DNA of 64,000 bases from Vicinamibacterales bacterium (GTDB lineage: Bacteria; Acidobacteriota; Vicinamibacteria; Vicinamibacterales; JAMQPK01), in the NCBI GenBank assembly GCA_963821395.1, contig CAWGDY010000042.1:41263-105262 (forward strand), in the 5' to 3' direction. A program made the position numbers and the translations under genes. The notes beneath the pieces are model-generated. The model searched no databases. It saw nothing but the letters and a program-made list of their open reading frames with translations, and had not been told where the DNA came from. Shown here in pieces: positions 1 to 13,157 of this stretch; within the stretch, counting starts at the first letter, position 1; each line of letters begins with the position of its first letter.

Positions 1-557
1 CCCGCCGCGGCAATCACGAAGTCATGATGCGCGGGACGTTTGCCAACACCCGGCTGCGCAATCAGCTCGCGCCGGGTACCGAAGGCGGATGGACGACCTA
101 TCAGCCGTCGGGCGAGCAGATGACGATCTACGACGCGTCGATGACATACCAGGCCTCGGCGGTGCCGCTCGTCGTGATTGCGGGGAAGGAGTACGGATCG
201 GGCTCGTCGCGCGACTGGGCCGCCAAGGGCACGCTGCTCCTGGGTGTGCGCGCGGTCATTGCCGAAAGCTTCGAGCGCATCCACCGCAGTAACCTCGTGA
301 ACATGGGCGTGCTGCCGCTGCAGTTCAAGCCGGGCGAAACCGCCTCGACCCTGGGTCTGACGGGCCGGGAGCAGTACGACATCGCGATAGCCGCGTTGAC
401 GCCGCGGGCCACGATCGCCGTCCGCGTGCGCCCGCCCGATGGGAAAGACCGCGAAATTCAGGCCGTCGTCCGCATCGACACGCCCGAAGAGCTGACGGCC
501 TTCCGCCACGGCGGCATCCTGCCTTATGTTTTCCGGCAACTCTTGGACAAACCGTGA
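1..557 (+). CDS. acnA: aconitate hydratase, C-terminal part (5' end outside window)
   Basis: ORF 24..557 is open to the window edge. The translation ...[45 protein letters not shown]... is the conserved aconitase C-terminal (swivel) region. TGA at 555-557. Confidence 0.85.
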
Positions 558-619: not shown

Positions 620-1442
620 ATGACCCGGTTCAGCTCTGTACTCATATTAGGATTCGTGACGCTTGCCGGCAGCAGCTACCTGGCCGCCCAAGCCCCGGAA
701 CGCAAAGAGGAGCGTTCACAGCAATATCCCGGCAGCAATCCCCATCTGAACAGACAAGGAGTCCATCCGGGGCGGCATGTCCCTGTATCGCAGGATGTGC
801 GGCGAGTGCCACGGCCTCGATGCGCTGGGCTATCGCGGTCCCAACCTCGTCGCATTTATGGGGGGCGCGAGCGACGAAGCCCTGTTCCAGACGATTCGCC
901 GGGGTGTGCCGGGATCGGAGATGCCGGCCAGCACCCGGCCCGACCACGAAATCCTGCAAATCATGGCGTATCTGCGCAACATGAACGCGGCAGTGCCGGC
1001 CGACACGACCCCCGTCGGCAACGTCGCCAACGGCGAGCAGTTGTTCGCCAAGCAGTGCCAGAACTGCCATCGCGTTGCGGGGAAAGGCGGCCGCCTCGGC
1101 CCCGATCTCAGCCGCATCGGCTCGGCGCGCACGCGCGCGGCGCTCGTCCGTGAAATCAGGACGCCGGCCGAAGTGATTCCACCCGCGTACGAGACGGTCA
1201 CGGTCGTCACGAAGACCGGGCAGAAGGTACGCGGCGCGAAGAAGAACGAAGACGCGTTCTCGATCCAGGTGATGGACATGGGCGAGCGCATTCAGGGTTA
1301 CAAGAAGTCGGACGTGGAAGTGACCTACGACAAGAACTCGCTGATGCCGGCTTTCGACCCGAAGCGGCTGACCGATAGCGACCTGAGCGATCTGGTCGGC
1401 TATCTCACCACGCTGCGCGGGTACGACGTGGCGGTTCGTTAA
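620..1442 (+). CDS. dihaem c-type cytochrome with Sec signal peptide; one +1 frame break as assembled
   Basis: The signal peptide MTRFSSVLILGFVTLAGSSYLAAQAP lies in the frame of ORF 620..1153. Both haem-c motifs (CGECH, CQNCH) and the rest lie in ORF 777..1442, whose frame is open from 750. The two frames join at ~750-765. TAA at 1440-1442, 8 nt before the first PQQ dehydrogenase. Confidence 0.7.
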
Positions 1443-1450
1443 GGAGGCCT

Positions 1451-3061
1451 ATGCGTGCATTATTGATGGTCGTCGTTTGCTCGGTCACGCTCGCCGCACA
1501 GCAACCCTCTCCGGGCACCGTGACGAACCAGGACATCCTTGCCGGCCTTCCGAGCGACGGATCGAAGTGGCTCATCTATCACGGCAACTACGCGGGCCAT
1601 CGGTTCAGCCCGCTGACCCAGGTTACGCCCGCCAACGTCAGCCAGCTCAAGGCGCAGTGGACGTTCCAGACGGGCCTCACCCCGAATTTCCAGACCACGC
1701 CGCTCTTCGTGGACAACGTCCTTTACGTCAGCGGCTTCAACGGCAACGCCTGGGCCATCGATGCGCGAACGGGCCGGCAGGTCTGGCGGTACCGGCGGAA
1801 TATGCCAGACGACTTCCGCGGCTGCTGTGGTCCGAACAACCGCGGGATGGCCGTGCTCGGCGACAAGCTGTTCCTCGGAACGGGAGATGCCCATCTCGTC
1901 GCGCTGGACATCAAAACGGGCGACGTCGTCTGGGATCGCGAGCTGGCGGATTACACGAAGGGCTATTCGATTACCGTCGCACCGATCGTCGTCAAAGACA
2001 AAGTCATCATCGGGATGGCGGGCGCCGAGTTTGGTATCCGCGGATTCATCGAGGCGATGAACGTGGACACGGGCAAGTCGGCGTGGAAGTTCTACACGGT
2101 CGCCGGACCCGATCAGCCCGGTGGCCAGACCTGGCCGAAAGGCTCGGACGCCTATCTCCGCGGTGGCGGCTCGATCTGGGTGTCGGGCACCTACGATCCC
2201 GAACAGAATCTGGTGTTCTTTGGCACCGGCAACCCCGGACCGGATTACTTCAGCCCGGCGCGTGAGGGCGACAACCTGTATACCTGCTCGGCGGTTGCGC
2301 TCGACGCCGATACGGGCCAGCTCAAGTGGCATTACCAGTTCACGCCGCACGACCTGCACGACTGGGACTCCACGCAGGTGCCTGTGCTCGCCGATCTCAC
2401 GATCAACGGCCAACCGCGCAAGACGATGCTGTTTGCCAATCGCAACGGGTTCTTCTACGTGCTCGATCGGACCAATGGCCGCATCATTTCCGCGAAGCCG
2501 TTCGTGTCGCAGAACTGGGCCAAGGAGATCAGCCCCGAAGGGCGGCCGATTCTCAACCCCGGCATCAACCCCAGCGAGGAAGGCAGCATCAAGGTGTGCC
2601 CGGATCTGGGCGGAGGCACCAACTTCTTCTCGCCGGCCTACGATCCGACGCAGCGGCTCTTTTTCGTGAACGCGCGCGAGACGTGCGCCATCTACTACTC
2701 CTGGCACGAGCCGTTCAGACAGGGGGAGCAGTACGAGTCAGGCGGCACCACGCGGCCGCCCGAGCAGAAGAACTACGGAGCGTTGCGCGCGATCGATCCG
2801 GTGACTGGCGAGCGCAAGTGGGAGTTCCGTTATCAGACGACGTCGGCGTCAGGCATTCTGACAACGGCGGCGGGCCTGGTGTTCTCGGGCGACGGCGACG
2901 GCAACATCATCGCGCTGGACTCGAAGAGCGGCAAATACCTGTGGTATTACCAGCTCGGGAACGGTCTCAAATCGACGGGTGGGACGACCTACATGGTCGA
3001 CGGCAAACAGTACTTGCTGTTCCCGTCGGGCGCCGCGCTGACCGCGTTCGCGCTGCCGTAG
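1451..3061 (+). CDS. PQQ-dependent dehydrogenase, methanol/ethanol family (paralog 1)
   Basis: 536 aa. AAGGAGG at 1441-1447 precedes ATG 1451. Signal peptide MRALLMVVVCSVTLAAQQ. Family hallmarks: vicinal Cys pair RGCCGPNNRG (TGC TGT 1823-1828), GAEFGIRG, GTGNPGP, and TPHDLHDWDSTQ (GAC TGG GAC 2360-2368). Confidence 0.9.
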   Translation: MRALLMVVVCSVTLAAQQPSPGTVTNQDILAGLPSDGSKWLIYHGNYAGHRFSPLTQVTPANVSQLKAQWTFQTGLTPNFQTTPLFVDNVLYVSGFNGNAWAIDARTGRQVWRYRRNMPDDFRGCCGPNNRGMAVLGDKLFLGTGDAHLVALDIKTGDVVWDRELADYTKGYSITVAPIVVKDKVIIGMAGAEFGIRGFIEAMNVDTGKSAWKFYTVAGPDQPGGQTWPKGSDAYLRGGGSIWVSGTYDPEQNLVFFGTGNPGPDYFSPAREGDNLYTCSAVALDADTGQLKWHYQFTPHDLHDWDSTQVPVLADLTINGQPRKTMLFANRNGFFYVLDRTNGRIISAKPFVSQNWAKEISPEGRPILNPGINPSEEGSIKVCPDLGGGTNFFSPAYDPTQRLFFVNARETCAIYYSWHEPFRQGEQYESGGTTRPPEQKNYGALRAIDPVTGERKWEFRYQTTSASGILTTAAGLVFSGDGDGNIIALDSKSGKYLWYYQLGNGLKSTGGTTYMVDGKQYLLFPSGAALTAFALP

Positions 3062-3080
3062 CTCGGCCAGTAAGTGCTCT

Positions 3081-3165
3081 GTCATGGCAAATGGCAGAGG
3101 GCAGATGGATGATGGCAACAGATAGCTCTGCCATCTGCCATCTGCCATTTGCCATCTGCCATGAC
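3081..3165. repeat. REP-like palindromic element, family A (GCCATCTGCCAT units), copy 1
   Basis: The left arm gtcatggcaaatggcagagggcagatgg... is nearly the reverse complement of the right arm ...ccatctgccatttgccatctgccatgac. It fills the gap between PQQ paralogs 1 and 2. Related copies lie at 14075-14177 and 35302-35367. Confidence 0.85.
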
Positions 3166-3183
3166 ACGCGTCATGGAGGCCCT

Positions 3184-4794
3184 ATGCGTCCGTTGCTGCT
3201 GGTCGTCATCTGCTCGGTCACGCTCGCGGCGCAACAGCCCGCTCCGGGCACCGTGACAAGCCAGGACATCCTTGGCGGCCTTCCGAGCGACGGATCGAAG
3301 TGGCTCATCTATCACGGCAACTACGCGGGTCATCGGTTCAGCCCGTTGACGCAGATTACGCCCGCCAACGTCAGCCAACTCAAGGCGCAGTGGACGTTCC
3401 AGACGGGCCTCACACCGAATTTCCAGACGACCCCGCTATTGGTAGACAACGTCCTCTATGTCACGGGCTTCAACGGCAACGCCTGGGCCATCGACGCGCG
3501 AACCGGCCGCCAGATCTGGCGGTACCGTCGCAACATGCCCGACGACTTCCGCGGGTGCTGCGGTCCGAACAACCGAGGCATGGCGGTTCTTGGCGACAAG
3601 CTGTTTCTCGGCACTGGCGACGCGCACATCGTTGCGCTCGACATCAAGACGGGCGACGTGATTTGGGATGCCGAGATGGCTGAGTATTCACACGGATATT
3701 CGGTCACGGTGGCCCCGATCGTGGTGAAAGACAAAGTGATCGTCGGCGTGGCCGGCGCGGAGTTCGGCATTCGCGGGTTCATCGACGCGTACGACGTGAA
3801 CACAGGGAAGAGGATCTGGCGGTTCTATACCGTGCCCGGTCCCGATCAGCCGGGCGGGCAGACGTGGCCGAAAGGCTCGGACGCGTATTTGCGGGGTGGC
3901 GGGTCGATCTGGGTATCAGGCACATACGATCCCGAACAGAATCTGGTGTTCTTCGGCACCGGTAATCCGGGCCCCGATTACTACAGCCCGGCGCGCGAGG
4001 GAGACAACCTCTACACGTGTTCGGCAGTCGCCCTGGACGCCGACACCGGGCAGTTGAAGTGGCATTTTCAGTTCACGCCGCACGACCTGCACGACTGGGA
4101 TTCGACGCAGGTGCCGGTGCTCGCCGATCTCACGATCAACGGCACACCGCGCAAGACCATGTTGTTTGCCAATCGCAACGGGTTCTTCTACGTGCTCGAT
4201 CGGACGAACGGCCGGATGATTCTGGCCAGGCCGTTCATCTCGCAGAACTGGGCAAAGGAGATCAGCCCGGAGGGACGGCCAATTCTCAACCCTGGCACCA
4301 ATCCGAGCGAGGAAGGCAGCACCAAGGTGTGTCCCAATCTGGGCGGAGGCACCAACTTCTACTCGCCGTCGTACGACCCGACGCAACGGCTGTTTTTCGT
4401 GAACGCACAAGAGACGTGCGCCACCTACTACACCTTCAACGAGCCGTTCCGGAGGGGGGAACAGTACCAGTCCGGCGGGACGACACGGACACCTGACCAT
4501 ATAGCCTACGGGGCGCTGCGCGCGATCGATCCGATCACCGGCGAACGCAAGTGGGAGTTCCGCTATCAGGGCACCTCATCGTCGGGTGTCCTGACGACGG
4601 CGTCGGGCCTGGTGTTTTCGGGTGACGGCGACGGCAACCTCATCGCGCTCGATTCGAGGAACGGAAAGTACCTGTGGCACTACCAGATGGGCGTGGGCCT
4701 GCGGTCGACTGGCGGGACGACATACATGGTGGATGGCAAGCAGTATCTGCTGTTCCCGTCGGGCGCCGCGCTGACCGCGTTCGCGCTGCCGTAG
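3184..4794 (+). CDS. PQQ-dependent dehydrogenase, methanol/ethanol family (paralog 2)
   Basis: ATG 3184 (MRPLLLVVICSVTLAAQQ) lies inside the long ORF 2326..4794. It gives 536 aa, the same length as paralog 1 and collinear with it at high identity by eye. Same CC pair, and the DWD motif at 4093-4101. Confidence 0.9.
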   Translation: MRPLLLVVICSVTLAAQQPAPGTVTSQDILGGLPSDGSKWLIYHGNYAGHRFSPLTQITPANVSQLKAQWTFQTGLTPNFQTTPLLVDNVLYVTGFNGNAWAIDARTGRQIWRYRRNMPDDFRGCCGPNNRGMAVLGDKLFLGTGDAHIVALDIKTGDVIWDAEMAEYSHGYSVTVAPIVVKDKVIVGVAGAEFGIRGFIDAYDVNTGKRIWRFYTVPGPDQPGGQTWPKGSDAYLRGGGSIWVSGTYDPEQNLVFFGTGNPGPDYYSPAREGDNLYTCSAVALDADTGQLKWHFQFTPHDLHDWDSTQVPVLADLTINGTPRKTMLFANRNGFFYVLDRTNGRMILARPFISQNWAKEISPEGRPILNPGTNPSEEGSTKVCPNLGGGTNFYSPSYDPTQRLFFVNAQETCATYYTFNEPFRRGEQYQSGGTTRTPDHIAYGALRAIDPITGERKWEFRYQGTSSSGVLTTASGLVFSGDGDGNLIALDSRNGKYLWHYQMGVGLRSTGGTTYMVDGKQYLLFPSGAALTAFALP

Positions 4795-4827
4795 CTTCAT
4801 CAGTAGGTGATCTGTCAGGAGAGGTCT

Positions 4828-6436
4828 ATGCGTCCTTTGTTGCTGGCCGTCATCTGCTCGGTTTCACTCGCGGCGCAGCAAGCTGGCCCGCCCACCGTCA
4901 CCAACCAGGACATCCTCGCCGGACTGCAGGACGGCACGAAGTGGCTGACCTACTCGGGCAACTACTTCGGCCATCGGCACAGCCCGCTCACGCAGATCAC
5001 GCCCGAGAACGTGGGGCAGCTCAAATCGCAGTGGACGTTCCAGACGGGCGCGCTCGGAAACTTTCAATCGACGCCGCTCGTGATCGACGGCGTCCTGTAT
5101 GTCACGGGCTGGGGAGGCGACGCGTGGGCGCTCGACGCGCGCACGGGACGGCAGATCTGGCGCCATCGCCGAACGCTGCCTGACGATATCAGGGCGTGCT
5201 GCGGGCCGAACAATCGCGGATTCGGTGCGCTCGGCGACCGGCTGTTTCTGGGCACGGCCGACGCGCATCTCCTGTCGCTCGATATGAGGACCGGCGCGGT
5301 TCTCTGGGATGCCGAGCTCACCAACTACAAGTCTGGATATTCGGTGACCGTCGCACCGCTCGTCGTGAAGGACAAAGTCATCGTCGGCGTGGCCGGCGCC
5401 GAGTACGGCATACGCGGCTTCATCGATGCGTACGACGTGAGCTCCGGCAAGCGGCTGTGGCGGTTCTATACCGTGGCGGGACCCGACGAGCCCGGTGGCA
5501 ACACATGGCCGCGGGGAAGCGACGCGTACCTTCGCGGCGGGGGATCGATCTGGGTGACCGGCACCTACGATCCCGAACAGAATCTGGTGTTCTACGGGAC
5601 GGGTAATCCGGGTCCCGACTATTTCAGTGCCGTGCGCGAAGGCGACAACCTGTACACGGCGTCGGTGGTGGCGCTCGACGCCGACACCGGCAAGATCAAG
5701 TGGCATTTCCAGTTCACGCCGCACGACGTCCACGACTGGGATTCGACGCAGGTGCCGATCCTGGCCGACCTCACCATCAGCGGGCAGCCGCGAAAGACGC
5801 TGATGTTTGCCAATCGCAACGGCTTCTTCTACGTGCTCGATCGCACGAACGGACGCATGATTCTTGCGAAGCCGTTCGTCCAGCAGACGTGGGCGAAGGA
5901 AATCAGTCCCGAAGGCCGGCCGATCCTGGTGCCCGGGACGCTGCCGACGGAGGAAGGGGCGCGAACGTGTCCCGATGCCGGCGGTGGGACGAATTTCTAT
6001 TCTCCGTCCTACGATCCCACCAACCGGCTCTTCATCGTGACAGCGCGCGAGACGTGTGCGACGTACTACTCGTACAACGAGCCGTTCAAAGACGGTGAAC
6101 GTTACGCGGGCGGTGGCGGCGTGCGCCTGAGCACTCACGTGAACTACGGTGCCTTGCGCGCGCTCGATCCCGTCGACCGGCGATCGGAAGTGGGAGTTCC
6201 GCTACTCCGACGGTTTCGTCCTCCGGCGTCCTGACGACGGCCTCGGGCCTGGTGTTTGCCGGTGACGGCGACGGCAACGTCATGGCAGTCGAGATCGAAG
6301 ACCGGCCGGAATCTGTGGCACTACCAGCTCGGTACCTGCGTCCGCTCGACAGGCGGGACGACCTACATGGTGGACGGCACGCCAGTACTACCTCGTCCCG
6401 GCGGGCAGCACGCTGACGGCGTTCGCCCTGCCGTAA
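4828..6436 (+). pseudogene. PQQ-dependent dehydrogenase paralog 3, interrupted by four +1 frame breaks near its 3' end
   Basis: ATG 4828 (MRPLLLAVICSVSLAAQQ). The gene is collinear with paralogs 1 and 2 up to ...NYGALRALDPV. The expected continuation RKWEFRY / SSGVLTTASGLVFAGDGDGN / TGRNLWHYQLG / QYYLVPAGSTLTAFALP* is recovered only by shifting frame at ~6180, ~6216, ~6293 and ~6381. TAA at 6434-6436. Confidence 0.75.
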
Positions 6437-6448
6437 GAGAAGCATGCC

Positions 6449-6544
6449 TTGACGCAGAGACGCTGAGGCGCAGAGAATTTTTTCAGGAGCGTTCTGGACA
6501 CTGGTGCCTGAAGATTCTTTGCGGCTCGGCGACTCTGCGTCGAA
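6449..6544. repeat. REP-like palindromic element, family B (GACGCAGAG units), copy 1
   Basis: Left arm ttgacgcagagacgctgaggcgcagag and right arm ctttgcggctcggcgactctgcgtcgaa form an imperfect inverted repeat. The same architecture recurs at 15860, 26491 and 63867, with half copies at 35443 and 63222. Confidence 0.85.
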
Positions 6545-7595
6545 AGATCGCCTCACCAGCGTTGCGGTAAAGAGTCGCGCGCGCGAGCTCGGATTCGAGC
6601 TGTGCGGCGTCGCTCCCGCGGAAGCCTTTCCCGAGCTCGGGTTCTTCAAGCAGTGGATTGCGAAAGGCTACGCCGGCACGATGGGGTACCTCCCCCGATC
6701 GGCCGAGCGGCGCGCCGACGTGCGCAATGTCATACCGACGGCGCGCTCGGTGATCGTCGTCGGCGCGCTCTACAACACCGGCGAGCCGTATTCGATCGAG
6801 CGTCACGATCCCGAGCGCGGGGAAGTGGCGCGCTATGCCTGGAGCCGCGACTACCACGACGTGCTGGGTGAGCGCCTCGATGCGCTTCTTGCCTGGATGA
6901 GAGGGCAGCATCCGGAACCCTTCGATGCACGCGCCTATGTCGACACCGGACCGGTGCAGGAGCGTGTGTACGCGCAGTACGCGGGCGTCGGTTGGATTGG
7001 CAAGAACACGTGCGTGATCAATCCCGATCTCGGGTCGTGGCTGCTGCTGGGCACGATCGTCTGCAGCCTGCCGCTCGAGGCCGACTCGCCCTCGCTCGAT
7101 CAGTGCGGCACGTGCACGCTCTGTCTCGAGGCCTGTCCCACTGGTGCCTTTGCGGCGCCGCATGTGCTGGACGCGACCCGGTGCATCTCGTATCTCACCA
7201 TCGAGTACCGCGGCTCGATTCCCGAAGGGCAGCGCGAGGCGATTGGTAACCATCTCTTCGGCTGCGACGTCTGTCAGGAAGTCTGCCCGTTCAACGCAAC
7301 GCCTGTTGATGCTGTGAAGCCGTCGTGGTCTTCGCGCGACGATCTGAATGGTCAGCAGTTGGTCGATCTCTGGAGCAGAAGCGACGCCGAGCTTGCCGTG
7401 TTCATCGGGGACACGGCCATGACGCGCGCCGGAGTCCGTGGCCTGCGGCGGAATCTTGCCGTGGCATTGGGCAATTCCGGCGACCCGTCTGCGCTCGAAG
7501 TGCTTTCGGAAACCCAAACCACTGCCGACACACGAACGGATCCACTGGTCCTCCAGCATGTCGCCTGGGCGAAATCCAGATTGCGGCAGACATAG
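6504..7595 (+). CDS. queG: tRNA epoxyqueuosine(34) reductase
   Basis: 363 aa with ...RELGFELCGVAPAE..., the ferredoxin-type motifs CGTCTLCLEACPTGAF and LFGCDVCQEVCPFN, and CISYLTIE. The first ~14 codons overlap the right arm of REP B1, so the exact start is uncertain. Confidence 0.85.
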   Translation: MPEDSLRLGDSASKDRLTSVAVKSRARELGFELCGVAPAEAFPELGFFKQWIAKGYAGTMGYLPRSAERRADVRNVIPTARSVIVVGALYNTGEPYSIERHDPERGEVARYAWSRDYHDVLGERLDALLAWMRGQHPEPFDARAYVDTGPVQERVYAQYAGVGWIGKNTCVINPDLGSWLLLGTIVCSLPLEADSPSLDQCGTCTLCLEACPTGAFAAPHVLDATRCISYLTIEYRGSIPEGQREAIGNHLFGCDVCQEVCPFNATPVDAVKPSWSSRDDLNGQQLVDLWSRSDAELAVFIGDTAMTRAGVRGLRRNLAVALGNSGDPSALEVLSETQTTADTRTDPLVLQHVAWAKSRLRQT

Positions 7596-10002: not shown

Positions 10003-10320
10003 GTGCCTGATCTTCCCAACCCCGAAGTAACGGCGCTCCTCCTGGCATGGGGACACGGCGACGATGCAGCCTTCGACCGCCTGGTGCCGATGGTCCATGC
10101 CGAGCTGCGCCGCATTGCCCGCCGGCACATGGGACACGAGCGGGTGGGGCACACCCTTCGGCCGACCGCGCTCGTCAATGAGGCTTACCTCAAGCTGGTC
10201 GACGCCCGGCAAGTCAAATGGCAGGACCGTGCGCACTTTTTTGCGATGTCGTCGCGCTTCATGCGACAAGTCCTGGTCGACTGGGCGCAACAAAAAGAAG
10301 TGATTAGGGATTGGGGATGA
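10003..10320 (+). CDS. ECF-type sigma factor, truncated after region 2 (no sigma4 domain)
   Basis: GTG start, 105 aa. The segment ...FDRLVPMVHAELRRIARRHMGHERVGHTLRPTALVNEAYLKLVD...WQDRAHFFAMSSRFMRQVLVDWA matches the N-terminal two-thirds of TIGR02999/PF07638-type ECF sigmas. The ORF then ends in the heptamer repeat (…EVIRDWG*). Its TGA overlaps the kinase ATG (ATGA at 10317-10320). Confidence 0.7.
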   Translation: MPDLPNPEVTALLLAWGHGDDAAFDRLVPMVHAELRRIARRHMGHERVGHTLRPTALVNEAYLKLVDARQVKWQDRAHFFAMSSRFMRQVLVDWAQQKEVIRDWG

Positions 10321-13157
10321 GGAATAGCGACTGGCGGCGCGTCGAAGAGATCGTGCGGGCCGCGCGCGAGCGTGCGCCGCATGAGAGGCAGGGCTTTGTC
10401 CGCCAGGCGGCAGCTGGTGATGAGTCCTTGCGGATGGAAGTGGAATCGCTGCTGGAGAACGCCAACAGCCCGACTCCCTCCCCCTCAGTCGTACCACGAT
10501 TGAATCTGACAGGCAGACGCATCGGCGTCTACGAAGTCGGCGTCATGATCGGCGCCGGGGGCATGGGTGAAGTCTATCGGGCACGCGACACGAAGCTCGC
10601 GCGCGACGTCGCGTTCAAGGTCCTGCCGGGCGACTTGGCTTCTGATCCAGAGCGCCTCGCGAGGTTCCAACGCGAAGCCCGTGTCCTCGCCGCATTGAAT
10701 CACCCGCACATCGGCGCGATACACGGTTTCGAGGAGTCTTCCGGCGTTGTGGCGCTCGTGCTGGAGCTCATAGAGGGCCCGACCCTGGCTGAACGCATTG
10801 CGAGAGGGGCTCTCACGGTGGGCGATGCGCTGAAGATCGCGCGGCAGATCGCGGAGGCGCTGGATGCGGCTCATGAGAGAGGCGTCATCCATCGCGATCT
10901 GAAGCCCGCCAACATCAAGCTCACCTCAGACGGCCAGGTGAAAGTGCTCGACTTCGGCCTGGCGAAGTTCGCACGAGCGCCGAATCTCTCGCACGCGCCG
11001 CCAACCGAGACCCTGGCCACGAGCGAGGGCGCGATTTTCGGCACACCTTCTTACATGAGCCCCGAACAGGCGCGCGGTCTGGCCGTGGACAAGCGCACCG
11101 ACATCTGGGCGTTCGGATGCGTGCTTTACGAAATGTTGTGTGGGCGCGAAGCCTTCCCGGGCCGCACGCTGTCCGATCGCCTCGCAGCGGTCATCGAGCG
11201 GGAACCCGACTGGTCTCGATTGCCGGCCTCCACGCCCGACGCTGTGAGTCGCCTCGTCCGACGCTGTCTGGACAAAGACGCGAGCCACCGGCTTCGCGAC
11301 ATTGGCGACGCGTCGGAAGAACTCGCTGACATCGTCCACGAGCGCGTGCCCATCGTCGCGAAGCCGCGAAATATGGCTATGGATGGCCGGCGCGACCGTC
11401 ATTCTGATTGGCATCGCTGCTGGCGTTGTTGTCTTCTGGAAAGCATCCCCGACAGGTCGAACCAATTCGTCCGGTGCGATTTCTGCTGACACCGCCCAAA
11501 GGGTCACACCTTCGCGAATTCCGCGATTCCAACGTTTCAAATGTCGCGATTCCATCGCCCGACGGCCGCAATATTGTGTTTCGAGCCGCGACCGCGAGCG
11601 GCCAGTTCTCATTGTGGATTCAGGCTCTCGATTCCAATTCTGCGCGGCAGTTACCCGGAACCGAAGACGCGCTGTTTCCGTTCTGGTCGCCCGACGGTCG
11701 CTATGTTGCGTTTGGCGCAGGAGACACGCTGAAGAGAGTGCCCGTTGCCGGTGGCGAGGCTGAGATCATCACCGCGATCTCGAACGGTCCTCTTGGCGCG
11801 ACATGGAACAGCGACGGTGTGATCGTGCTGACGCCAGGTAATCAGCGAGGGTTGTATCGTGTCCGCGCCTCTGGCGGCACGGCGGAACCGCTGACGCAGT
11901 TGGACAAGACCCGATCGGAAAACTCGCATCGCTGGCCTCAATTTCTTCCCGACGGCGATCACTTTCTGTACACGGCCAGGTCCGATTCGCCGGAGAACAC
12001 GGGAATTTACGTGGGCTCGCTCGCTACCGGAGAACGCAAATGGCTGATGCCGGCGCAATCGGGGGCCAACTACGTGGCGCCCGGCCATCTGTTGTGGGTG
12101 CGTGACGGGACGTTGCTGGCCCAGCCGTTCCGCCTCGACACGTTCGAGTTGACCGGCGACGCGACGGCGATCGCCGCAGACGTGACACATGTCAGGGCAG
12201 GCGCGTTCGGATCTTTCTCGGCTTCAGACGACGGCAGCGTTGTGTCTTACACCGTGAGCCAGTCCGATCGGAGACGCCTCCAGTGGTTCGATCGTTCGGG
12301 AAAAGCCGTTGGTCAGGCGATCGCAGAAGGAGACTTTGGCCAGTTGCGCCTCGATCCGTCAGGGAGTCGGGCGGTGGTTTACCGTCCGAGCAAAGAAGAC
12401 GGAAGCCGGGACATCTGGACGATCGACCTGGCGACTGGAGCGCAGACGCGGATCAGCTCGTCTCCTTCGAATGACTGGTATCCCACATGGTCGCCAGACG
12501 GTACGCACATTCTTTACCTGTCTGAAAGGAATGGCGCATCCGAGTTCTATTTGAGAGCGGCAGATGGCTCAGGGGAAGAGAAGCTCGTCTGGTCGGTTAC
12601 AGGAAGTGCGATTCCCGACTGACTGGTCGCGCGATGGCCAACGTATCGCGTTCTATGCGAATGCCGACTTCACAGACGAGCGGCGTTTCGATCTCTGGAT
12701 TCTTCCGTTGCCATGGGGAGCGAAGCCGACGCGCATATCATCACGGACGCCATTTGTCTGAATGGACGGGGCGTTTTTCGCCCGATGGTCGTTGGCTCGC
12801 GTACTCGTCGAACGACTCCGGCACTGAAGAGGTGTACGTGCGCGCTCTCGATGGAGAAAGCGCGCCAACGTATTTCGCTGAAAGGGCGGAATGCAGCCGA
12901 TCTGGACGCGCGACGGAAAGGAGTTGCTGTACCTGGCGCCGGGCAGTCAGTTGATGTCCGCAGCCATGACGCCGGTGGAGACTTCGACTCGATCCGCGAA
13001 ACGATTGTTCGTTGCCTGCGGCGAACCTTCGGAGTCGTATTACCAGCTATTCGACGTGTCGCCGGACGGGTTACGAACACTGTGGTTGTGTTCGCCGCCG
13101 CAGGAAGCCTCGACGAACATGATCGCCATCGGGTGGTTGCAGCAGCTGCCGCATTAG
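10317..13157 (+). pseudogene. Ser/Thr protein kinase - TM - TolB-like beta-propeller, about six +1 frame breaks as assembled
   Basis: The kinase domain (GAGGMGEVYRARD, HRDLKPANIKL, DFGLAK, SYMSPEQ) is in ORF 10311..11489. The TM segment WLWMAGATVILIGIAAGVVVFW is in the next frame. The propeller repeats (SPDGRNIVF, WSPDGRYVAFG, WSPDGTHILY, FSPDGRWLAYSS, WTRDGKELLY) are spread over ORFs 11408.., 12564.., 12634.., 12713.. and 12891..13157. Confidence 0.75.

Follow-up and report, generated by a model that had tools for sequence, protein, structure and literature searches.

The window analysed here is a stretch of 64,000 nucleotides of contig CAWGDY010000042.1, from the metagenome-assembled genome (MAG) of a soil bacterium of the order Vicinamibacterales (Acidobacteriota; assembly GCA_963821395.1), and our subject is a conserved operon at positions 620–6436, which is inserted between the genes for aconitase and the epoxyqueuosine reductase QueG. 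We consider it likely that this is an operon for a dihaem cytochrome c and three predicted lanthanide (Ln)-type dehydrogenases dependent on pyrroloquinoline quinone (PQQ), and that the broken reading frames in two of its four genes are artefacts. The three dehydrogenases are paralogs and are called P1, P2 and P3 below; L002, L006 and similar handles denote related loci used for comparison. The features of the locus are as follows.

3–557, forward strand: C-terminal part of aconitase, the upstream flank, outside the operon and a conserved boundary of the locus (Pfam Aconitase_C, 141 bits; present at 11 of 11 related loci).

620–751, forward strand: first piece of the cytochrome c gene, with ribosome-binding site, ATG and Sec signal peptide (MTRFSSVLILGFVTLAGSSYLAAQA...), collinear with residues 1–44 of the intact 273-residue orthologue at L002.

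749–753, forward strand: frame break in the cytochrome c gene, one extra base compared with orthologues (a single extra base in each of the pairwise DNA alignments to L002 and L006).

750–1442, forward strand: second piece of the cytochrome c gene, with two haem domains, CGECH at 798–812 and CQNCH at 1056–1070 (Pfam, NCBIfam).

1451–3061, forward strand: P1, an intact exported PQQ dehydrogenase of 536 residues (TIGR03075, 544.2 bits; mapped onto PDB 4MAE; no insertion or deletion relative to the L006 orthologue).

2360–2368, forward strand: D304-W-D306 of P1, the D-x-D motif (motif scan; 4MAE residue mapping).

3062–3183, forward strand: intergenic hairpin of YTGCCAT heptamers between P1 and P2, resembling a repetitive extragenic palindromic (REP) element (folding energy −68.9 kcal/mol, z = −7.5).

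3184–4794, forward strand: P2, an intact exported PQQ dehydrogenase of 536 residues (TIGR03075, 550 bits; AlphaFold2 model with PedH as best PDB match, template modelling (TM) score 0.87).

4093–4101, forward strand: D-x-D motif of P2, DWD (motif scan).

4828–6436, forward strand: P3, homologous over its full length, its open frame stopping at 6234 in the assembly (open reading frame (ORF) map, translation, paralog alignment).

5734–5742, forward strand: D-x-D motif of P3, DWD (motif scan).

6168–6382, forward strand: four single extra bases in P3, at ~6168–6175, 6205–6212, 6293–6297 and 6379–6382 (alignments to P1/P2, L002 and L006).

6504–7595, forward strand: epoxyqueuosine reductase QueG, the downstream flank and other conserved boundary (Pfam QueG_DUF1730 and Fer4_16; same neighbour at related loci).

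P1 begins 8 nucleotides after the cytochrome stop codon and is preceded by a GGAGG ribosome-binding site. P1 and P2 are 88% identical as proteins and 84% as DNA, and P3 is approximately 70–75% identical to both. In P1, P2 and P3 respectively the motif CCGPNNRG starts at 1823, 3556 and 5197, AE[FY]G at 2024, 3757 and 5398, and GTGNPG at 2222, 3955 and 5596; the key residues, in P1 numbering, are C125-C126, E193, N261, D304, D306 and R331. A preliminary description of this DNA had reported the motifs, with positions for D-x-D, and a motif scan found every one of these statements exact, as was its statement that P1 and P2 are very similar proteins of equal length. Its three paralogs, at 1451–3061, 3184–4794 and 4828–6436, are borne out as intact ORFs for P1 and P2 only, the frame of P3 ending at 6234, and the secreted dihaem cytochrome that it placed 8 nucleotides upstream has the spacing and the haem motifs but is not a single ORF, its signal peptide lying in another frame. 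It had thus read through five frame breaks, in two of the four genes, without remark in its account of the operon, having listed the four of P3 separately.

The dehydrogenases contain the PQQ propeller domain of Pfam, and their identity as exported PQQ-type dehydrogenases is supported. The curated cut-off of TIGR03075 (PQQ-dependent dehydrogenase, methanol/ethanol family) is 480.05 bits, which P1 and P2 exceed; P3 reaches 457 bits, a shortfall for which the cut in its frame at 6234 is the only reason. TIGR04528, the ‘acido-empty-quinoprotein group A’, is the second-best NCBIfam match, with 542.6 bits for P1 and 558.8 bits for P2, below its cut-off of 650 bits. Among solved structures, the bit scores obtained with HMMER were 362 for ADH-IIB, 360 for PedH, 309 for XoxF2, 297 for ExaA, 291 for XoxF5 and approximately 265 for MxaF.

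Seven solved enzymes, four Ln-dependent and three calcium-dependent, were taken from the HMMER alignments and aligned with P1–P3 using MAFFT. Residues E193, N261, D304, D306 and R331 of P1 correspond to E172, N256, D299, D301 and R326 of XoxF2 (4MAE), and to E177, N261, D303, A305 and R331 of MxaF, while C125-C126 align with C103-C104 of MxaF; this mapping is reliable because the numbering of 4MAE and 1LRW matches the published active-site numbers. The position of D306 holds the second aspartate of D-x-D in PedH and Thr285 in ADH-IIB (1KV9), and it is Asp in all four of the Ln enzymes aligned and in none of the three calcium enzymes. The positions of E193, N261, D304, D306 and R331 are invariant across 41 members of the clade to which P1–P3 belong. 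Lanthanide dependence of the three enzymes is predicted from this D-x-D alignment. The XoxF motif from which the preliminary description had argued, TPWDSWDYDG, is the exact sequence of 4MAE, and its gap-free alignment holds, with the second Asp falling on D301 of XoxF2 and on the Asp of PedH, where MxaF has Ala and ADH-IIB has Thr. Its estimate that the proteins are about 60 residues shorter than XoxF was also close: P1–P3 are approximately 40–65 residues shorter than the aligned XoxF and MxaF chains, because two loops of those enzymes, of ~23 residues and (C-terminally) ~43 residues, are missing. All three terminate directly past blade 8 and have no C-terminal cytochrome fusion. An AlphaFold2 model of P2 has a predicted TM score of 0.80, and shares 36% identity with PedH, its best structural match.

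A phylogenetic tree was estimated in IQ-TREE under LG+C20, with XoxF1, XoxF2, XoxF5 and MxaF as the only XoxF/MxaF references; the references for comparison generally were the solved structures and the xoxFGJ locus of S. meliloti. The XoxF/MxaF clade is supported at 100/100 and excludes P1–P3, which form a single clade with metagenomic homologues from Vicinamibacterales (99/99). Nearest to this clade is a paralog on contig C49 of the same genome, followed by the sole true TIGR04528 member in the genome (C11:50269-51711, 724.5 bits), which has lost both the Cys-Cys pair and the metal-binding Glu. A clade supported at 100/99 encloses P1–P3 and their relatives, the C49 paralog and the TIGR04528 member, and contains neither PedH, ADH-IIB nor XoxF/MxaF. 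When XoxJ and XoxG of S. meliloti were used as tblastn queries, xoxJ had no match at the locus or in the genome, as the preliminary description had said of the locus, and the best match to xoxG, elsewhere in the genome, reached 49 bits; no paralog in the genome exceeds 37% identity with XoxF5. The enzymes carry the active-site signature of XoxF but are not XoxF, and belong to a separate, abundant clade adjoining TIGR04528, with a function predicted from sequence. The earlier label ‘XoxF-type’ therefore survives for the motif and fails for the family, as the enzymes fall outside XoxF/MxaF in the tree. The suggestion of a distinct and poorly studied clade stands insofar as the clade is apart from XoxF, MxaF, PedH and ADH-IIB, but the clade is neither rare nor unnoticed. 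Numerous Ln-type families of PQQ dehydrogenases, and large expansions among Acidobacteria, are already predicted in the literature (PMC11996626; bioRxiv 10.64898/2026.07.10.737718), and P2 has more than 8000 similar proteins in the databases, some of them annotated as Vicinamibacterales dehydrogenases of the methanol/ethanol family.

The intact orthologue of the cytochrome has 273 residues and carries, besides a signal peptide, one class I domain and the haem-binding domain of TIGR02603. In Pfam the cytochrome matches Cytochrome_CBB3 (80.6 bits) and Cytochrom_C (65.1 bits), and its TIGR02603 score of 104.5 bits exceeds the cut-off of 68.15; it falls below the cut-offs for cytochrome cL (MoxG/XoxG, TIGR03872; 47 against 147.8 bits) and for PedF (TIGR04494; 32.7 against 122 bits). 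All 11 related MAG loci preserve the same gene order, from aconitase through the cytochrome and one to three dehydrogenases to queG, and differ in the number of dehydrogenase copies. At one of these (L013:7001-13725) the order is cytochrome, dehydrogenase, cytochrome, dehydrogenase, dehydrogenase, which implies that the whole two-gene module was duplicated there and not the enzyme gene alone. A metagenomic protein of 794 residues from the Joint Genome Institute (JGI), P0112, is a natural fusion, in which the dihaem cytochrome is N-terminal to a dehydrogenase that shares 70% identity with P2, and a linker rich in Ala, Pro and Thr takes the place of the enzyme's signal peptide. Within the genome itself the cytochrome has 12 homologues, 10 of which have a PQQ dehydrogenase gene no more than 3 kb away and mostly directly adjoining. 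The proposal, already made in the preliminary description, that the cytochrome is the dedicated electron acceptor of the dehydrogenases is well supported by comparative sequence evidence, because the conserved synteny, the natural fusion and the repeated genomic pairing all independently point to it.

Several further observations concern these cytochrome and dehydrogenase pairs. P0112 is a quinohaemoprotein whose haem domains precede the enzyme, opposite to the arrangement in type II alcohol dehydrogenases. The genome has another nine cassettes that pair a dihaem cytochrome with a PQQ dehydrogenase (C14:74385-76859, C30:257185-259585, C34:144038-146469, C29:2947-5258, C23:4019-6325, C11:49328-51714, C50:15073-17384, C43:36296-38368 and C57:210096-211976); many of their dehydrogenases lack the Cys-Cys pair (reading, for example, VGNAAGGINRG) or the Glu and keep D-x-D. 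One Vicinamibacterales locus (L011, CAYHHH010000045.1; cytochrome 77% and dehydrogenase 86% identical) lies on a contig titled ‘uncultured Bifidobacteriaceae bacterium’, which is probably mis-binned or mislabelled.

Two genes of the operon are broken in the assembly. The cytochrome gene (620–1442) is split, with the signal peptide (620–751) one frame before the haem domains (750–1442), and P3 needs four +1 frame changes to reach its stop codon at 6434–6436, leaving approximately 90 conserved residues scattered over other frames. At L006, from another Vicinamibacterales MAG, the cytochrome and all three dehydrogenases are intact, and the P3 orthologue is a protein of 533 residues that is 84.5% identical. 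Relative to L006 the window has one extra base in the cytochrome gene (~751), four in P3 (~6168, 6212, 6294 and 6379) and none in P1 or P2. The L002 and L005 loci (97% identical) are without the extra bases of the window at ~753, 6175, 6207 and 6297, and show no gap relative to the window near 6382. The signal peptide of the cytochrome is in frame in the L002 and L006 orthologues and displaced by one base in the window. L002 has private single-base insertions of its own, which break its P1 and P3. A paralog-based tblastn screen found 316 homology-supported frameshift sites across the genome (211 of +1 and 105 of −1), and the essential gene rpoB (G000:C18:4398-8613) is split at approximately C18:5930. 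The N-terminal 449 codons of P3, compared with L006, have a ratio of non-synonymous to synonymous substitution rates (dN/dS) of 0.056, and across all three paralogs dN/dS is 0.05–0.11. Given the intact L006 locus, the private insertions and deletions of L002, the 316 frameshift sites, the split rpoB and the dN/dS of P3, we judge the breaks in the cytochrome gene and P3 to be errors of an indel-rich MAG assembly and not pseudogenisation.

Programmed +1 frameshifting, or quadruplet decoding, was considered since all five local breaks are +1, and was rejected because breaks occur in both directions across the genome, share no common motif, are private to each 97%-identical MAG and affect rpoB. 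Other signs of assembly quality lie elsewhere. Of the genome's PQQ dehydrogenase genes, roughly 45 in number, some 10 are likewise split. At 10003–12622 of the window are an extracytoplasmic function (ECF) sigma factor ORF of 105 residues and a Ser/Thr kinase-TolB gene split into pieces of 392 and 404 residues, the counterparts of which (L002:16440-17551) are a sigma factor of 210 residues with region 4 and a single kinase gene of 955 residues; the versions in the window are probably assembly damage too, or a recent deletion. PQQ dehydrogenase pairs that lie on different contigs and have identical proteins or identical alignment statistics (C24:40276-41739 and C55:8651-10114; C16:32686-34050 and C40:18023-19387) suggest redundant contigs, or strain duplicates, in the MAG. 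As a practical warning, ‘pseudogenes’ and odd gene ends in this MAG are not to be trusted as they stand.

The genome (5.69 Mb in 57 contigs, 94% complete) contains approximately 40 PQQ dehydrogenase paralogs, nearly all with D-x-D at the aligned position. PqqC has no match in this 94% complete genome, and the best match to PqqE is 77 bits against a cut-off of 381; as a positive control, the same search detected PqqC in 12 of 201 genomes from the phylum, 2 of them among the 16 sampled from the same order. The preliminary description made no mention of this lack of PQQ synthesis. Scavenging of PQQ by organisms that do not produce it is documented, and the class Vicinamibacteria is included (PMC12124388). 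Since the genome is without pqqC and pqqE, PQQ is probably scavenged from outside.

The operon encodes a Sec-exported c-type cytochrome with two haems and three tandemly duplicated, Sec-exported, eight-bladed PQQ dehydrogenases of the alcohol type. We propose that each enzyme would bind PQQ in the periplasm beneath the Cys125-Cys126 ring, the PQQ having been taken up from outside as the genome lacks pqqC and pqqE, and would hold its metal through E193, N261, D304 and the extra D306, the last of which predicts a lanthanide over calcium. D304 would act as the base accepting the proton of the substrate hydroxyl while hydride passes to PQQ, and the co-encoded dihaem cytochrome would re-oxidise the reduced PQQ by accepting its two electrons one at a time, and may then feed the respiratory chain. 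Going beyond this, we put forward, with slightly less than even confidence, that the P1–P3 clade is a distinct family of Ln-dependent alcohol dehydrogenases, as predicted from sequence: short, without the lid loop or a Trp of the W476 type, with Ala before the metal-binding Glu, with a dedicated dihaem cytochrome, and in a host that makes neither PQQ nor an importer of the PqqU type.

Several observations count against our main proposal for the operon and must be weighed with the alternatives. The whole clade is biochemically uncharacterised, and among Ln-type families other than XoxF only type 2b has been confirmed experimentally (bioRxiv 10.64898/2026.07.10.737718). The Trp of MxaF W476 and XoxF2 W467 is replaced by Ala or Ser, and the C-terminal ‘VGGW...’ loop is missing from P1–P3. 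The residue before the metal-binding Glu, Ala192, is Ala in the three calcium enzymes aligned and Gly in the four Ln enzymes. In the AlphaFold2 model, which contains no ligand, the pLDDT score (from the predicted local distance difference test) is below 50 at the active-site loops 262–276, 299–307 and 385–392, so that the orientation of D306, within the second of these, is unreadable. No PqqU orthologue was found in the genome by tblastn with E. coli PqqU, the best match (56 bits) being generic similarity to TonB receptors, and the artefact verdict on the frame breaks draws on sequence comparison only. Some of these points would suit enzymes that depend on calcium, or are unselective for metal, despite their D-x-D, the extra Asp then marking the lineage without determining which metal is bound. 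Ala192 is shared with the calcium enzymes MxaF and ADH-IIB, where PedH and XoxF1/2/5 have Gly, the clade is uncharacterised (bioRxiv 10.64898/2026.07.10.737718), and D-x-D may be partly phylogenetic because nearly all of the ~40 paralogs carry it, very divergent glucose-dehydrogenase-like ones among them. Yet the Asp separates the four solved Ln enzymes from the three calcium enzymes and D306 is invariant in the clade; moreover, Nd-XoxF1 of M. thermophilum is an Ln enzyme with a residue bulkier than Ala, an Asp, before its metal-binding Glu (PMC8546591), and hence Ala192 is not decisive. We regard calcium dependence or metal indifference as unlikely, though with a real share of the probability.

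The lack of pqqC, pqqE and a PqqU orthologue would also be explained if these were ‘empty’ quinoproteins, using another cofactor or acting as binding proteins only, an idea that gains from their second-best NCBIfam match to the acido-empty group. Their scores for that model (543–559 bits) are nonetheless under its cut-off, its true member in the genome no longer possesses the Cys-Cys pair or the Glu, where P1–P3 keep all PQQ and metal residues, under strong purifying selection, and PQQ scavenging by non-producers is known in Vicinamibacteria (PMC12124388); we find this improbable. A short new clade within the XoxF methanol dehydrogenase family would account for the common D-x-D, Cys-Cys pair, Glu, Asn and Arg, but is scarcely credible given a tree position outside the 100/100 XoxF/MxaF clade, XoxF bit scores (291–309) lower than those of PedH and ADH-IIB (360–362), a genome without a xoxJ match and with only 49 bits for xoxG, and the absence of two XoxF/MxaF loops. 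Were the cytochrome gene and P3 true pseudogenes in this strain, P1 and P2 alone would work, and without their partner; the sequence as given does contain five breaks, four of them within 215 nucleotides and so denser than the genome average. All five, however, are single extra bases missing from an intact orthologue, the protein encoded between them is still conserved, the closely related L002 carries another set of insertions, private to it, rpoB is broken too and 316 further frameshift sites are spread across the genome; the related loci come from MAGs with contig names and sizes that suggest long-read assembly. We rate pseudogenisation as very improbable, and retain the operon of a cytochrome and three Ln-type dehydrogenases as our preferred interpretation.

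A scan for sigma-70 promoters and terminators gave no signal above chance at the locus. The hairpin between P1 and P2 has a second copy of 76 nucleotides at L002 (L002:11360-11435), between P2 and P3, which is missing from the window, suggesting that the element is mobile or unstable; its 13-mer core, TGCCATCTGCCAT, occurs 116 times in the genome, where there are 48 arrays of at least 3 units.

Vicinamibacterales are abundant soil bacteria, and a single genome here holds approximately 40 PQQ dehydrogenase genes yet has no PQQ synthesis. If our interpretation is true, much periplasmic oxidation of alcohols and sugars in soil would rely on rare earths and on PQQ from other organisms. On the bolder reading of a distinct family, the enzyme would need both PQQ and a rare earth to be scavenged, and the missing lid loop and Trp would perhaps open the active site further and admit other substrates. 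Both P1 and P2 are intact and canonical and have a clearly assigned cytochrome partner, and are therefore convenient for a first biochemical test of the family.

The operon is a real, ordinary and already widely predicted kind of system. Predictions of Ln-dependent PQQ dehydrogenases reach 70 per genome in Acidobacteria (PMC11996626), XoxF3 systems are known in the phylum (PMC10875860) and eight-bladed PQQ enzymes of the Ln type are known from fifteen described clades (bioRxiv 10.64898/2026.07.10.737718). The predicted acidobacterial cassettes and expansions (PMC11996626; bioRxiv 10.64898/2026.07.10.737718) share with our locus the module of two genes, the D-x-D, the phylum and the many copies per genome, and what is distinct here is the tandem triplication of the enzyme gene at a single conserved site, flanked by aconitase and queG. 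TIGR04528 is the nearest named subfamily, and its true member, like P1–P3, occurs in Acidobacteria without PQQ synthesis; P1–P3 differ in scoring below its cut-off and in keeping the Cys-Cys pair and Glu that the true member lost. XoxF (PDB 4MAE, 6OC5, 6DAM) agrees in the active site, where E172, N256, D299, D301 and R326 of 4MAE are all matched, whereas P1–P3 stand outside the XoxF/MxaF clade, lack its ~23- and ~43-residue loops and are accompanied by neither xoxG nor xoxJ. The Ln-dependent PedH of Pseudomonas putida KT2440 (PDB 6ZCV/6ZCW), the best structural and second-best sequence match among solved structures, has the same eight-bladed propeller, Cys-Cys ring, Glu, Asn, Arg and D-x-D (DFD in PedH, DWD in P1–P3), and both place a Gln where MxaF has E55. 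PedH belongs to another clade, however, and the PedH chains are 562–601 residues long against 536 here; it has Gly before the Glu and a Trp (W464) where P1–P3 have Ala and no Trp, and its partner is PedF, while that of P1–P3 is a dihaem cytochrome in a host without PQQ synthesis. The best sequence match, the type II quinohaemoprotein ADH-IIB (PDB 1KV9; 362 bits), shares the logic of passing electrons from PQQ to a haem of the c type, but has a single haem fused C-terminally and a calcium-type D-x-T, where the present system has a separate dihaem cytochrome that is fused N-terminally in P0112.

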